A stretch of DNA of 3,540 bases from Escherichia coli (GTDB lineage Bacteria > Pseudomonadota > Gammaproteobacteria > Enterobacterales > Enterobacteriaceae): NCBI RefSeq assembly GCF_003334255.1, contig NZ_QOWU01000119.1, one strand, 5' to 3'. The position numbers and the translations under genes were made by a program. Every line of letters starts with the position of its first letter. Position 1 is the first letter of the stretch. Below the pieces are notes generated by a model that saw nothing but the letters and a program-made list of their open reading frames with translations, was not told where the DNA came from and did no database searches. Positions 1 through 3,540 of this stretch are shown one piece after another.

Positions 1-243
1 CATAAACCGGTGCAGTACTATCCCGGGAAACATCCGTGCGAAAAACCGGCAGAAATGCTGCAGCAGATAATCAGCGCGAGCAGTCGTCCGGGTGACCTGG
101 TTGCAGATTTCTTCATGGGGTCAGGTTCGACAGTCAAAGCAGCGATAGCGCTGGGACGTCGTGCAACTGGCGTTGAGCTGGAGACTGAGCGTTTTGAGCA
201 GACGGTCAGGGAAGTTCAGAATTTAGTCAGTCAGAACGGATGA
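1..243 (+). CDS. DNA methyltransferase (N6-adenine/N4-cytosine type), C-terminal fragment; 5' end lies upstream of the window
   Basis: Frame 1 is open from base 1 to the TGA at 241-243. The translation ...HPCEKPAEMLQQIISASSRPGDLVADFFMGSGSTVKAA... carries the HPxxKP motif followed by the FxGxG AdoMet-binding motif (D-x-F-M-G-S-G-S-T) typical of this methylase family. The ORF-track start at 10 is an internal GTG, not the true start. Confidence 0.8.
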   Translation, partial: HKPVQYYPGKHPCEKPAEMLQQIISASSRPGDLVADFFMGSGSTVKAAIALGRRATGVELETERFEQTVREVQNLVSQNG

Positions 244-283: not shown

Positions 284-359
284 GGCCCTTTAGCTCAGTG
301 GTGAGAGCGAGCGACTCATAATCGCCAGGTCGCTGGTTCAAATCCAGCAAGGGCCACCA
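284..359 (+). tRNA. ileZ: tRNA with anticodon CAU, tRNA-Ile2 (lysidine, AUA-decoding) type; 76 nt with encoded CCA
   Basis: Manual cloverleaf: acceptor GGCCCTT (284-290) pairs with AAGGGCC (349-355), discriminator A356, CCA 357-359. D-arm GCTC/GAGC; anticodon loop CTCATAA with CAT at 317-319; T-loop TTCAAAT. The sequence is close to E. coli ileX as I remember it. The symbol ileZ is by analogy with Stx-phage tRNAs and is tentative; from the anticodon alone an elongator tRNA-Met cannot be excluded. Confidence 0.8.
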
Positions 360-368
360 TATCACATA

Positions 369-445
369 CCGCCATTAGCTCATCGGGATAGAGCGCCAGC
401 CTTCGAAGCTGGCTGCGCGGGGTTCGAGTCCTCGATGGCGGTCCA
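369..445 (+). tRNA. tRNA-Arg, anticodon UCG; 77 nt with encoded CCA
   Basis: Manual cloverleaf: acceptor CCGCCAT (369-375) pairs with ATGGCGG (435-441), discriminator T442, CCA 443-445. U8 present; D-arm GCTC/GAGC with ATCGGGATA loop; anticodon stem CCAGC/GCTGG; loop CTTCGAA with TCG at 403-405; 5-nt variable loop; T-stem CGGGG/CCTCG (one G-U); T-loop TTCGAGT. Confidence 0.75.
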
Positions 446-501
446 TTATCTGCATTATGCGTTGTTGGTTCTGATGAGTGAATCATTGTCTTTTGAGCAA
501 C

Positions 502-523
502 AGGCTATCATATAAGATAGCCT
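502..523. repeat. Perfect 8-bp inverted repeat (hairpin) in the tRNA-to-ORF spacer
   Basis: AGGCTATC (502-509), 6-nt loop atataa, GATAGCCT (516-523). It is not followed by a T-run, so it is not a canonical terminator; it could be an RNA processing structure or a protein-binding site. Confidence 0.5.
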
Positions 524-723
524 CAGACTTCCTTGTTTATTCTCGCCGGATGCTTCGTAGATATTTGCAGGCATCTGTATGCAGGGGTATTATTGCGGCA
601 TATATCATCCGGAAAAATAAAAACTACATGCTGATCCGGAGATGATAGTTACAAGTCCTCCCGGATCCCGCATATTTACTATATTTTATAGATAATTGTT
701 CTTGTTAATATGGAGATGGATAA

Positions 724-1152
724 ATGTATTGCCGTGCTGTACCAGTTCTTGTTTTGATATTAGCCAGTCTGACAACTGGCTGCACAAAAGATGTATCGAC
801 AAATAATTATGATGCTTCTCTGTATCACTCAGATAAATTAATAAAGTCGCAAAATTTGAGCTCATCGGAACGTACCCCTGATGCCAGTGAAGAAATCAGG
901 CAGTATGCCATTCAGGTCAGGAAAGCCATAGAAGAACAGTTAAAGGATGCGAGTAAGTATTCAGGAAAAGAGTGTTCACTGAGAATGTATATGGCCCCGA
1001 ATGGTCTTCTGCTACAGGTTAAAAGAGAAAGCGGTGATCCCGATTTATGTCGTGAAGCGATGAATGCAGTAAAGAATGCTGATATACCATCACCACCGTC
1101 TTCAGGAGTATATAAAGCATTTAGAAATGGCGTGCTGGATTTTAAACTCTGA
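724..1152 (+). CDS. Predicted lipoprotein with a TolA C-terminal (domain III)-like domain; prophage cargo gene
   Basis: ATG 724 to TGA 1150-1152, 142 codons; GGAG at 712-715 is a plausible Shine-Dalgarno. N-terminus MYCRAVPVLVLILASLTTGC has a hydrophobic core and a lipobox-like TTGC with Cys20 and Thr at +2. A Ser/Thr/Asn/Asp-rich linker follows. The C-terminal 85 residues or so (YAIQVRKAIEEQLKDASKYSGKECSLRMYMAPNGLLLQVKRESGDPDLCREAMNAVKNADIPSPPSSGVYKAFRNGVLDFKL) align by eye with remembered E. coli TolA-III (...YAGQIKSAIESKFYDASSYAGKTCTLRIKLAPDGMLLDIKPEGGDPALCQAALAAAKLAKIPKPPSQAVYEVFKNAPLDFKP), including both Cys (codons 973-975 and 1048-1050), the GDP-x-LC motif and the terminal LDFK. GC is about 30-42% here versus more than 50% in the flanking genes. 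Confidence 0.8.
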   Translation: MYCRAVPVLVLILASLTTGCTKDVSTNNYDASLYHSDKLIKSQNLSSSERTPDASEEIRQYAIQVRKAIEEQLKDASKYSGKECSLRMYMAPNGLLLQVKRESGDPDLCREAMNAVKNADIPSPPSSGVYKAFRNGVLDFKL

Positions 1153-1155
1153 CAG

Positions 1156-1175
1156 GGGGAGAAGATTTTCTCCTG
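1156..1175 (+). terminator. Weak stem-loop immediately after the 724-1152 stop codon
   Basis: GGGGAGAA (1156-1163), loop GATT, TTCTCCT (1168-1174). The downstream tract tcctgatgattttgg is only moderately T-rich, so this is a possible weak intrinsic terminator or mRNA-stabilising hairpin. Confidence 0.3.
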
Positions 1176-1328
1176 TCCTGATGATTTTGGGGCGCTGGAA
1201 AGATATTGTGCTGTGAAGTGTTAAATTCCTCACAATTCAGTAAGTTGACAGTTGCCTGTCAGACTGGGCATTTGTTAAAAAAATTTCGCATGGTGAATCC
1301 CCCTGAGCGGAGGGGCGACTGGTGACGG

Positions 1329-1334
1329 TATAAT
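1329..1334 (+). promoter_or_regulatory. Consensus -10 hexamer TATAAT without a convincing -35
   Basis: TATAAT at 1329-1334. No good TTGACA-like hexamer lies 16-18 bp upstream (AGCGGA at 17 bp). The consensus TTGACA at 1245-1250 is too far away to pair with it and has no good -10 of its own. Confidence 0.25.
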
Positions 1335-1340
1335 CTCTGA

Positions 1341-1462
1341 TTATCAAAACGAGAATGACGCGGGTTTAGTGGCACCGGGCTGAACTCACCGGGAGGCACC
1401 CGGCACCATGTTCATGGTGATACAGAAATGCGGCTTCAGCCCCTCTCCGGAGGGGCTTTCTT
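1341..1462 (+). ncRNA. Hypothetical small structured RNA of about 120 nt, running from the candidate -10 to the intrinsic terminator
   Basis: There is no credible ORF in this interval. Consecutive hairpins: CCGGG-aggca-CCCGG (1389-1403), perfect palindrome CACCATG-tt-CATGGTG (1404-1419), and the terminator hairpin at 1438-1457 followed by a T-rich tract. Purely structural inference. Confidence 0.25.
1438..1462 (+). terminator. Rho-independent terminator, + strand
   Basis: AGCCCCTC (1438-1445), loop TCCG, GAGGGGCT (1450-1457): an 8-bp GC-rich stem followed by TTCTTAT. Confidence 0.6.
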
Positions 1463-1468
1463 ATGGAC

Positions 1469-1496
1469 AAAAAAGCCCGCGCTGGGAGACGCGGGC
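1469..1496 (-). terminator. Rho-independent terminator, - strand, back to back with the + strand terminator
   Basis: On the + strand: A6 (1469-1474), then GCCCGCG (1475-1481), 8-nt loop, CGCGGGC (1490-1496). Read on the - strand this is a 7-bp GC stem followed by TTTTTT. Confidence 0.5.
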
Positions 1497-1680
1497 GGCA
1501 AGGAATAAACAATAAAACGTGAAGTAATATTTCAGCTGGCGAATAATACCCCATAGTAATCACTCTGCGCAACTGCGCGGCCTTTTTCGTATTGCGGGCT
1601 GTAGTCTCCCTTCTGCCATTGTCCTGTAACTTCCGGACTTCAGCTCGCTCCTTATCTGACTCACAACATTATCCCGACCG

Positions 1681-1686
1681 GGAGGA
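1681..1686 (+). promoter_or_regulatory. Shine-Dalgarno sequence for the esterase gene
   Basis: GGAGGA at 1681-1686, 3 nt upstream of ATG 1690. Confidence 0.6.
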
Positions 1687-1689
1687 TTC

Positions 1690-3540
1690 ATGACATTTAA
1701 ACACTACGATGTGGTCAGGGCGGCGTCGCCGTCAGACCTTGCGGAGCGACTGACACAAAAACTGAAGGAGGGGTGGCAGCCATTTGGCAGCCCTGTGGCC
1801 ATCACGCCTTATACCCTGATGCAGGCCATTGCGGCGGAAGGTGATGTCACCACACCGGTGGTGGTGCAACCGTCGGGTGATGGTGGCGCTGTTATCAGCA
1901 CCACCAGCGAACCGGAATATTACTTTGTCATTGCGCTGGCCGGGCAGTCCAACTCGATGTCTTTTGGCGAGGGGCTGCCGCTGCCGGAGACATATGACCG
2001 TCCGGACCCGCGTATTAAACAGCTGGCGCGTCGCAGTACGGTGACGCCGGGTGGTGCCGCCTGTAAATATAACGACATCATTCCGGCAGACCACTGTCTG
2101 CATGATGTGCAGGATATGAGTAACCTGAATCATCCTCATGCAGACCTGAGTAAGGGACAGTACGGTTGTGTGGGGCATGCTCTGCATGTTGCCAAAAAGC
2201 TGCTGCCGTTTATGCCTGCGAATGCGGGTATCCTTCTTGTTCCATGTGGCCGTGGCGATTCGGGATTTACTGCGGGGGCCGAGGGGGCGTTTAACGAAGC
2301 GTCGGGAGCGACCGCAGGCTCGTCCCTGTGGGGGGCGGATAAACCGCTGTATCATGACCTGGTCAGCAGAACCCGTGCGGCCCTGAAGAAAAATCCGAAG
2401 AACGTGCTGTTATCAGTGATCTGGATGCAGGGAGAAAAAGATGTCAGTTCGGGGAGACATGCAGAACACAATGCGCTTTTCCTTGCCATGGTAAATCAGT
2501 TCCGTACGGAACTGGCAGATGTGGCAGAGCAGTGTACTGGCGGGACAACGGCCAGCGTCCCGTGGATTTGCGGTGATACCACGTACTACTGGAAGGAAAG
2601 GTATGCAGCGCCGTATGAGGCGGTTTACGGTGGGTATAAAGGCAAAGCTGCGCAGAATATTCACTTTGTGCCGTTGATGACGGATGAGCATGGTGTGAAT
2701 GTGCCGACAAACGAGCCGTCAGAAGATCCGGACATTATCCCGGCGGGATACTATGGCGCTGCGTCACGCACTGCCAGTAACTGGACGTCAGCCGATCGTA
2801 AAACGCACTTCAGTTCATGGGCGCGAAGAGGCCTTGTTTCAGACCGCCTGGCAGGTGCCATTTTGCAGTACGCCGGGCGGACATTATCGTTCCTTACCGG
2901 GCAGAGCGCACCGCAGTCGGGTGGTACAACTCCCGGTGATGATGTCAGTCCGGGGGTACCGGGTGTTGAGAAACCGCAGGATGGCGGTGTTGCTGGTACT
3001 GGTCATGATGAGGCCGTGAGCAGTACCAGGACGGTGGCTGAATATGATGCGAACAGTGGAAATGGTGTATGGACAGAGCAGCAGTGGGGGGCTGCCGGTG
3101 GCAAAGGCACTGTGACTGATGACGGTGGACGGAAAGCGCTACGACTGGAAAAACAGCCCGGTAAACTGACGTCCTGGAAAATGTTCCGTACTGTTGCAGT
3201 GGAGGAGGCAAAAAATCTTCTCAGCAAGGGGGGTGAAATTGCCGTACGGTTCAAAATTCCGGATGGAAGCGAACTGGTGAACGGACAGTTTGTCTTTGGT
3301 CTCTACTGGCCGGTGTCGCAGTGGGCGTCAGGCGCGGCAGCAAACAGTATGCTGGCATCATTCTTCCTTCAGACGGATGCATCAAATCTGAATCTTATGC
3401 ACCACAAGGGCACGTCGAATGCACAACTGGGTACATTTGGTGCGTTTGACCATAACTGGCATACGGTTGTTTTCCGCTTTGCGGGAAATAACAGCGAAAG
3501 AGTCGTTCCGGTGATTGATGGTACAGAGCAGACGGCGTTT
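1690..3540 (+). CDS. nanS-p: Prophage-type sialate (9-O-acetyl-N-acetylneuraminate) O-acetylesterase, NanS-p family; 5' partial, continues past the window end
   Basis: ATG at 1690 with a strong SD. I translated all 617 codons to the window end with no stop. The N-terminus MTFKHYDVVRAASPSDLAERLTQKLKEGWQPFG... matches the DUF1737-type N-terminal domain. It is followed by the SGNH/SASA esterase block YYFVIALAGQSNSMSFGEGLPLPETYDRPDPRIKQLAR with the catalytic GQSN serine motif, as in E. coli NanS (YjhS) and the Stx-phage paralogues. A Gly/Pro/Thr-rich linker (about 2890-3010) and a further C-terminal domain follow. Confidence 0.9.
   Translation, partial: MTFKHYDVVRAASPSDLAERLTQKLKEGWQPFGSPVAITPYTLMQAIAAEGDVTTPVVVQPSGDGGAVISTTSEPEYYFVIALAGQSNSMSFGEGLPLPETYDRPDPRIKQLARRSTVTPGGAACKYNDIIPADHCLHDVQDMSNLNHPHADLSKGQYGCVGHALHVAKKLLPFMPANAGILLVPCGRGDSGFTAGAEGAFNEASGATAGSSLWGADKPLYHDLVSRTRAALKKNPKNVLLSVIWMQGEKDVSSGRHAEHNALFLAMVNQFRTELADVAEQCTGGTTASVPWICGDTTYYWKERYAAPYEAVYGGYKGKAAQNIHFVPLMTDEHGVNVPTNEPSEDPDIIPAGYYGAASRTASNWTSADRKTHFSSWARRGLVSDRLAGAILQYAGRTLSFLTGQSAPQSGGTTPGDDVSPGVPGVEKPQDGGVAGTGHDEAVSSTRTVAEYDANSGNGVWTEQQWGAAGGKGTVTDDGGRKALRLEKQPGKLTSWKMFRTVAVEEAKNLLSKGGEIAVRFKIPDGSELVNGQFVFGLYWPVSQWASGAAANSMLASFFLQTDASNLNLMHHKGTSNAQLGTFGAFDHNWHTVVFRFAGNNSERVVPVIDGTEQTAF

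Follow-up and report, generated by a model that had tools for sequence, protein, structure and literature searches.

We analysed a 3,540-nt stretch of Escherichia coli DNA (RefSeq assembly GCF_003334255.1, contig NZ_QOWU01000119.1; one strand, 5' to 3'), referred to here as the window, which is part of the late region of a lambdoid prophage resembling the Shiga toxin (Stx) phages. Between the phage tRNA genes and a sialate esterase gene, positions 467-1229 are a moron-type cargo cassette that was acquired separately and sits in the slot where sister phages carry stx. The cassette encodes a 142-residue lipoprotein ending in domain III of TolA (TolA-III). A first-pass annotation, made from the sequence alone, had pointed out an AT-rich island at 450-1250 and proposed that it is an independently acquired module; it had not identified the cargo gene. 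The features of the window are the following.

10-243, plus strand: 3' end of a phage DNA methyltransferase gene (open reading frame, ORF; annotated as DNA-methyltransferase in the closest matching prophage, L001); GC 0.535; conserved left flank.
284-359, plus strand: phage tRNA with a CAU anticodon, ileZ-type (ARAGORN); left flank.
369-445, plus strand: phage tRNA-Arg (UCG), argN-type; left flank.
459-466, plus strand: first 8 nt (GCGTTGTT) of argO, the third phage tRNA (tRNA-Arg UCU), from side-by-side comparison with the Stx2a phage Stx2_95 (L002) and with UTI89 (L006), and from blastn breakpoints.
467-723, plus strand: AT-rich non-coding 5' part of the cassette, 257 nt, possibly with its own promoter (candidate).
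502-523, plus strand: hairpin with a perfect 8-bp stem (AGGCTATC/GATAGCCT), a 6-nt loop and no adjacent T-run (folding and shuffles).
724-1152, plus strand: cargo gene for the 142-aa lipoprotein with TolA domain III (ORF; RefSeq CDS WP_000271631.1), with a GGAG Shine-Dalgarno at 712-715.
724-783, plus strand: signal peptide, residues 1-19 (MYCRAVPVLVLILASLTTG), and lipobox Cys20 (781-783), with Thr and no Asp at +2.
784-882, plus strand: 33-residue linker rich in Ser, Asp, Thr and Asn (residues 21-53), predicted disordered, under looser constraint (dN/dS 0.36-0.53).
883-1149, plus strand: TolA domain III (residues 54-142), with both disulphide cysteines kept and ending where host TolA ends.
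1151-1177, plus strand: imperfect hairpin directly after the stop codon, with TTTT 8 nt downstream and no canonical T-run.
1227-1230: right homology breakpoint, where four sequences become alignable at CTCACAATTCAG.
1259-1468, plus strand: STnc100 prophage small RNA (sRNA) gene (Rfam RF02076, full-length model); conserved right flank, not cargo.
1690-3540, plus strand: 5' part of a nanS-p-type SASA carbohydrate (sialate O-acetyl) esterase gene; right flank; GC 0.554.

The cassette differs sharply from its flanks in base composition, with a GC content of 0.405 compared to 0.543 in the rest of the window (binomial z = -7.7). For the interval originally outlined, 450-1250, the value is 0.403. In 100-nt windows, GC is 0.34-0.45 from 451 to 1300 and 0.49-0.67 in the methylase fragment, the tRNAs and the esterase gene, and in 300-nt windows the maximum inside 467-1229 (0.443) is lower than the minimum in 1230-3540 (0.493). 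Positions 446-723 have a GC of 0.38. The ORF at 724-1152 has a GC of 0.408, and its GC at third codon positions (GC3) is about 0.33, compared to 0.54 for the methylase fragment and 0.56 for the esterase. Sliding-window GC and the GC3 of the ORF bear out both the AT-rich island and the sharp break with its flanks that had been claimed for it; a profile without deviation from the flanks was not what we found. Low GC persists as far as about 1300, since the next feature is the conserved STnc100, which starts with an A-rich 5' end and is flank, not cargo. What had been described as a GC-rich spacer is this STnc100 gene, which had not been recognized as an sRNA gene.

Comparison with related prophages, by blastn and by setting the sequences side by side, places the homology breakpoints of the cassette at 466/467 on the left and 1227-1230 on the right. 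Compared to Stx2_95, homology covers 1-466 (95%) and begins again at 1230, and the cassette 467-1229 stands where that phage has the rest of argO and stx2AB. The left junction falls 8 nt into argO, directly after the bases listed above. The right junction, about 30 nt upstream of STnc100, is common within 4 nt to the stx2 cargo of Stx2_95, the filler of UTI89 and PhiR5_1, and about 280 genomes match the query only at window 1226-1300. UTI89 has the same flanks and a slot without protein-coding cargo; its filler has a GC of 0.518 and is not AT-rich, while the stx2 cargo has a GC of 0.444. The 450-1250 extent given earlier was a good estimate, which can now be replaced by exact breakpoints.

The complete cassette is found in 123 of 5426 complete E. 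coli genomes, compared to 1779 genomes that have the left flank and 799 that have the right flank at 80% coverage or more. A divergent allele, matching over the TolA-III part only and with 81% nucleotide identity, is present in about 770 further genomes. The cassette is extra DNA that close relatives lack at the same position, and its GC deviates from that of the surrounding genes. The breakpoints are shared by three different slot occupants, and the other occupants of the slot are argO with stx2AB or no coding cargo at all. These results uphold the earlier proposal that the island was independently acquired and is variable cargo rather than ancestral phage core. We found no stx gene between the tRNAs and nanS-p in the ORF list of the window, the arrangement that marks an Stx-converting phage, and no stx within 5 kb of any copy of the cassette (a tblastn search of 67 related loci with Stx2A and Stx2B matched only the Stx2_95 reference locus). 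Linkage of the cassette with stx was rejected on the latter ground.

The first-pass annotation had also taken hairpins at 502-523 and 1156-1175 to coincide with the module boundaries. Both hairpins exist, but the breakpoints lie 36 nt and about 50 nt outside them, and we rejected them as boundaries for this reason. The first hairpin is strong (dG -13 kcal/mol, z = -3.3; 0 of 200 shuffles fold as well). The second, at 1151-1177, is energetically unexceptional (centroid -14.7 kcal/mol, z = -1.1 against shuffles) and is possibly a weak terminator or an mRNA 3' stabiliser. Between the left breakpoint and the first hairpin, positions 484-499 resemble the argO anticodon arm (13 of 16 matches, near-register, shuffle p about 0.05), which is only suggestive of 467-502 being a decayed remnant of that arm that ends where the hairpin begins. 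With a real remnant there, foreign sequence would set in only at about 503, at the start of the first hairpin. Neither ARAGORN nor Rfam detects a tRNA at 484-499 or a third tRNA elsewhere in the window.

The cargo protein begins with a signal peptide whose lipobox, L-T-T-G-C20, follows a 12-residue hydrophobic core, and the G-C of the lipobox is nearly invariant across alleles. Since the residue at +2 is Thr and not Asp, sorting to the outer membrane is predicted. From these motifs we infer that the protein would be lipidated and located in the outer membrane. After the linker, the TolA C-terminal domain of Pfam (PF06519) is matched at residues 52-140 (8.2e-23), while the NCBIfam TolA models are matched only in their last ~95 positions (297-386 of 387; 266-361 of 362). 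In PHROG, the protein matches phrog_5772, whose function is unknown (1e-57). Residues 54-141 align without gaps to residues 333-420 of E. coli TolA, with 51% amino acid identity to the K-12 protein, and strand beta3 is identical to that of host TolA in four of its five residues. Matches to E. coli TolA-III structures have E-values of about 1e-25 (PDB 1S62, 3QDP, 2X9A and 1TOL, including the complexes with g3p and colicin A). AlphaFold models residues 52-142 with a pLDDT above 90 and residues 1-51 with one below 50, and Foldseek aligns the model to 3QDR_A with a TM score of 0.91 and an rmsd of 1.5 A; for E. coli TolA-III overall, TM is 0.9 and rmsd 1.3-1.5 A.

The TolA-III domain of the cargo protein is under purifying selection. 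Between alleles, dN/dS is 0.25-0.29 on this domain and 0.36-0.59 on the N-terminal part, with dS of 0.44-0.94. Of the 19 distinct coding sequences that the 67 loci contain, 18 preserve the reading frame over all 142 aa. Nucleotide identity to K-12 tolA is 56%, and third-position identity is 36%. Given that third positions are saturated at this level, the capture is old, and recent capture from E. coli tolA was rejected on these numbers. No full-length TolA representative in our relatives search (described below) is closer than about 50%. We observed that ATA is used for 4 of the 6 Ile and AGA or AGG for 5 of the 8 Arg codons of the ORF, rare codons that are read by phage tRNAs. The ileZ gene lies directly upstream, but argO, which reads AGA and AGG, is the tRNA that the cassette displaced.

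From 61 IMG/VR viral loci and the annotated loci, we distinguished the following allele groups of the gene.

Group A: the type of the window itself, between argN and STnc100.
Group A': type A with a recombinant 3' end, in the same slot as A.
Group B: 70% amino acid identity to the protein of the window, in the same slot as A.
Group C (mEp460 type): 67% amino acid identity, downstream of an STnc100-like element and directly before the holin gene.

Upstream of the ATG, only the last ~50-70 nt are shared with group B. The A' gene (L024-L027, 5001-5426) is identical to that of the window through codon 53 and beyond, its last ~40 codons are like those of groups B and C, and its 3' junction differs (window 1147-1212), which points to recombination inside the gene. 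The nanS-p alleles that accompany cassettes of group A share 55-100% identity with the one in the window. In phages of the mEp460 type (L033, 5586-5972; L005, 6533-6907; L003, 6580-6975) there is a second, tandem lipoprotein-TolA-III paralog with a VAGC lipobox, 25% identical and with both cysteines kept, and it lies directly after the group C gene, in every case, and before the holin gene. Many loci (L015, 5897-7700; also L013-L023 and L067) have further DNA between STnc100 of the cassette region and nanS-p: a second copy of a methylase fragment (window 88-203), a gene for a 241-aa YdeO/GadX-like AraC regulator, an ORF of 92 aa and several repeats like STnc100. This block is a second moron stacked in the same region.

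The closest genomic match of the window is a prophage of E. coli G1/2 (L001), whose genes run from the Q antiterminator through a small ORF, the methylase, two tRNAs and a gene annotated as tolA to the esterase, holin, endolysin, spanin and terminase. About 7 kb downstream of the cassette in this prophage, after the lysis genes, we found a gene for a 108-aa lipoprotein (19262-19588; MKRNLPLIILLSSLVMGC followed by TQ) with a TonB C-terminal domain (TIGR01352, 1e-14). Its design is that of the TolA-III lipoprotein, and judging by these domain matches, the heads of both outer-membrane energy transducers, TolA and TonB, are present in tethered form in a single prophage. In the flanks, the CAU tRNA at 284-359 is labelled Met by ARAGORN, while RefSeq labels the identical gene tRNA-Ile (the lysidine-type ileZ of Stx phages). 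STnc100 matches RF02076 with 165.6 bits (gathering score 47; E 1.3e-38), and a terminator scan places a terminator-like hairpin at 1438-1457 within it. STnc100 and its relative PasD have been located upstream of phage sialate esterase genes (preprint, bioRxiv 10.64898/2026.05.13.724894), and related loci have 2-4 tandem STnc100-like copies upstream of nanS-p. The esterase is annotated as a SASA family carbohydrate esterase in L001 and as yjhS, 9-O-acetyl-N-acetylneuraminic acid deacetylase, in Stx2_95.

An exhaustive HMMER search over 1.8 billion cluster representatives returned 303 relatives of the cargo protein, and we read the architecture of the best 150. Among these 150, 71 are 100-170 aa long, and at least 45 of the 71 have a lipobox, none of these with Asp at +2; a few have ordinary signal peptides. 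The same architecture occurs in dozens of 50%-identity clusters across Enterobacterales, with named members from Klebsiella, Serratia, Kosakonia, Enterobacter and Scandinavium, all of them called 'TolA'. The contexts of the distant relatives are often mobile or competition-related rather than lytic. In Klebsiella michiganensis (L078/L079, 6520-7441), tandem genes for short TolA-III lipoproteins lie immediately upstream of a cdiB-cdiA contact-dependent inhibition (CDI) locus. In Klebsiella pneumoniae (L073-L075, 6406-7435), such a gene, which belongs to a cluster of at least 291 sequences, directly follows a thioredoxin-like gene; the surroundings, rich in IS66 and with a TIR-domain gene and a resolvase, are probably a plasmid or island. 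A Kosakonia relative adjoins dinI, next to icd, and a relative from a metagenome lies at an apparently ordinary chromosomal site.

What would a TolA-III domain tethered in this way do? We consider the chances evenly balanced that the protein is an outer-membrane-tethered decoy for ligands of TolA-III, namely group A colicins, the g3p protein of Ff phages and TolB. In TolA-III, strand beta3 (identical in four of five residues in the cargo domain) is bound by the N-terminus of TolB, the N1 domain of g3p of Ff phages and colicin N, and beta2 by colicin A (PMC7391070; PMC4339652). If it receives its lipid and is carried to the outer membrane, the cargo protein would sit in the inner leaflet and hold its TolA-III head in the outer periplasm, where the translocation domains of group A colicins and g3p N1 would first appear and where TolB-Pal resides. 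It would meet the colicin translocation domains or g3p before host TolA does and trap them unproductively; without coupling to TolQR or to the proton motive force, it could bind ligands and not energise import. It would then act as a decoy or competitor for the scarce host TolA, of which a cell has only about 400-800 copies. The lysogen would be tolerant to Tol-dependent colicins and Ff-type phages, amounting to lysogenic conversion or exclusion with an outcome like that of Cor and Llp. A moderate dose might trap invaders without crippling Tol-Pal, because TolB binds TolA-III only weakly (Kd about 40-200 uM; PMC7391070). Like stx2, the gene would be expressed as part of the late transcript that Q antiterminates, and possibly also from the candidate promoter in the AT-rich leader.

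Several points weigh against a decoy. Binding of E. coli ligands by a domain that is 51% identical is an assumption, and titration of TolB could be costly to the host. Our literature search found no study of phage or stand-alone TolA-III lipoproteins and no functional paper on the cargo gene, and PADLOC matched no families to the cargo protein or to the tandem paralog. A scan for promoters gave nothing above chance (3 promoter-like sites compared to 3.0 expected), the site at 564-593 (9 of 12 matches) being the sole one in the AT-rich leader. The terminator scan did not call the hairpin at 1151-1177 and found no canonical terminator. On these scans, a promoter and a terminator belonging to the cassette itself are candidates at most. 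Expression of the gene may be confined to the time after prophage induction, and this would agree better with a role at the lysis stage than with protecting the lysogen. Frameshifts or truncations in some database copies show that the gene can be dispensed with. A 'TolA' gene in a Cronobacter prophage is mentioned in passing in the literature (PMC2833190). An expression lead (PMC11125564), in which 'TolA' with the locus tag EDL933_2012 is 32-fold up with ciprofloxacin, was dropped after the supplement showed a tail fibre protein and not a homolog.

The main rival to the decoy is that the protein helps lysis or vesiculation at a late stage, which we regard as unlikely, although it is the best of the alternatives. 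Here the late transcript that Q antiterminates would be the sole source of the protein, which would appear at the same time as holin, endolysin and spanins, and free TolA-III would titrate the N-terminus of TolB, switching Tol-Pal off and loosening the outer membrane for faster lysis or for more vesicles or progeny. The gene does lie between Q and the lysis cassette in every phage context that we saw and has no convincing promoter of its own, TolA-III is a TolB-binding module, and defects in tol-pal cause hypervesiculation. Leakiness of cells with periplasmic TolA-III, as reported by Levengood-Freyermuth et al. (1993), would agree with this as well. However, most lambdoid phages with the same flanks do without the gene, and relatives occur in contexts that are neither phage nor lytic (the CDI locus, the plasmid or IS-type element, and apparently chromosomal sites). 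The weak binding of TolB means that a large dose would be needed, and an AT-rich leader of 257 nt together with a hairpin behind the stop codon gives the layout of a self-contained moron. A protective rather than lytic role is favoured by the distant relatives that lie outside phage lysis regions (at cdiBA, in the IS/TIR/resolvase element and at dinI/icd). The TonB C-terminal domain lipoprotein in the same prophage type favours it as well, and Cor is the precedent (PMC3594210).

It is improbable, in our view, that the protein is an envelope or virulence conversion factor of another kind, like Bor of lambda, with the TolA-III fold as a scaffold only. Such a factor would alter surface properties, serum or bile resistance, or the dynamics of Pal and TolB, to the benefit of the lysogen. 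The predicted architecture of an outer-membrane lipoprotein would agree with this, the gene occupies the virulence-cargo slot of Stx-type phages, and Bor, cited in PMC3594210, is a precedent for a phage outer-membrane lipoprotein that benefits the host. Against it, the ligand-binding beta3 and the disulphide are conserved with host TolA, and the TolA-III domain is the part under the strongest selection, a sign that binding in the manner of TolA is itself what counts.

We think it very improbable that the gene is a passenger without function, the 3' part of some tolA-like gene that was captured and is decaying in a recombination hot spot. Databases do contain frameshifted or truncated copies, the RefSeq name suggests a fragment, and duplications of methylase fragments and tandem copies of STnc100 make the slot a mosaic hot spot. 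The low dN/dS on the TolA-III domain at synonymous divergence of 0.44-0.48 speaks against decay, as do the 142-aa frame kept in all but one of the 19 distinct coding sequences, a signal peptide and lipobox that were acquired and then conserved, and the breadth of the family. The last alternative, that there is no separate module and that low GC is local intergenic or codon-usage noise in ancestral phage core, deserves almost no credence: phage late regions are compositionally patchy and the 5' end of STnc100 is A-rich too, but the size of the deviation (z = -7.7) and the rarity of the cassette compared to its flanks (123 genomes against 799-1779) argue against noise, and the sharp breakpoints common to three different slot occupants refute it.

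Taking the TolA and TonB lipoproteins together, we tentatively raise the possibility, which is rather more doubtful than otherwise, of a widespread family of outer-membrane-tethered mimics of TolA and TonB ligand-binding heads, carried by phages and mobile elements of Enterobacterales and intercepting colicins and phages. If true, this would be immunity or exclusion based on mimicry, distinct from receptor blocking, and located in the Shiga-toxin slot of sister phages. That slot is a general cargo site, and one alternative occupant is now defined with exact junctions, which helps to interpret those relatives of Stx phages that lack stx. A 130-150-aa lipoprotein named TolA in RefSeq is encoded in more than 800 complete genomes of E. 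coli and in many of Klebsiella, Serratia, Kosakonia and Enterobacter. Were the decoy to hold, about one E. coli genome in six would have a prophage gene that alters how sensitive the cell is to Tol-dependent colicins and filamentous phages, and perhaps also outer-membrane integrity and vesiculation, bearing on competition in the gut, on colicin and phage therapeutics and on phage display. Exclusion through mimicry of a host domain would then have a clean example from nature; a phage exclusion lipoprotein that works by such mimicry rather than by receptor blocking would be new.

Among known systems, one of the closest is host TolA itself. The cargo domain shares with TolA domain III (residues ~302-421) the fold, an ungapped alignment with 51% identity, both cysteines and the C-terminal end. 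In contrast, the cargo protein has neither the transmembrane domain I, with the SHLS motif that couples TolA to TolQ-TolR, nor the long Ala/Lys/Glu-rich helical domain II, which is replaced by the linker, and it has 142 aa compared to 421. The protein cannot work as TolA; it is domains I and II that make TolA an energy transducer, and both are absent. The genes differ as well: the cargo gene lies in a prophage between phage tRNAs and nanS-p, the host ybgC-tolQRA-tolB-pal-cpoB operon lies elsewhere, and GC3 is about 0.34 for the cargo gene and 0.47 for tolA. The RefSeq name of WP_000271631.1, 'cell envelope integrity protein TolA', over-reaches. The model TIGR02794 passes its cut-off (75.9 compared to 59.45 bits) though only the last ~95 of its 362 positions match, and the naming of 130-150-aa lipoproteins as TolA by PGAP is likely a systematic over-annotation.

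Cor (phi80, N15, HK022, mEp167) and Llp (T5) are likewise small, phage-encoded outer-membrane lipoproteins, and they act in superinfection exclusion, shielding the lysogen or infected cell by putting out of action an import route that phages and colicins share. Cor blocks FhuA, and its protection extends from phages that depend on FhuA to colicin M (PMC3594210). The Pfam and PHROG scans show no homology to Cor or Llp; they return only TolA/TonB-type families and a PHROG of unknown function. While Cor and Llp inactivate an outer-membrane receptor, the cargo protein would mimic a periplasmic energy-transducer domain and compete for its ligands. Comparable laboratory constructs also exist. Levengood-Freyermuth et al. 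(1993) reportedly found that free TolA-III exported to the periplasm made E. coli colicin-tolerant and leaky, and Howard et al. (2001) reportedly exported the C-terminal domain of TonB to the periplasm in a similar laboratory construct. These are stand-alone transducer domains that reportedly act as dominant-negative competitors and cause tolerance to colicins or phages and leakiness. They are soluble and artificially overexpressed, whereas the cargo protein is natural, phage-borne and, by its predicted lipobox, lipid-anchored.

The stxAB cassette is the counterpart by position. It lies in the same slot, downstream of Q, the methylase and ileZ-argN and upstream of STnc100, nanS-p and the lysis genes, and has the same right junction within 4 nt. 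It is likewise AT-rich compared to its flanks (0.444) and likewise rich in rare codons read by phage tRNAs (codon counts, and general knowledge of Stx phages). The stx cassette retains argO, while the TolA-III cassette replaces all but the first 8 nt of argO, and its cargo is unrelated and encodes no toxin. Classical morons, such as gp15 of HK97 and bor of lambda, are extra DNA compared to sister phages and deviate in GC, as the TolA-III cassette does (PMC3594210). They also share with it a single gene with a flanking hairpin and a likely benefit to the lysogen, while a promoter and terminator of its own are only candidates in the TolA-III cassette. As a compositional island, the TolA-III cassette is a textbook moron in the sense defined in PMC3594210.

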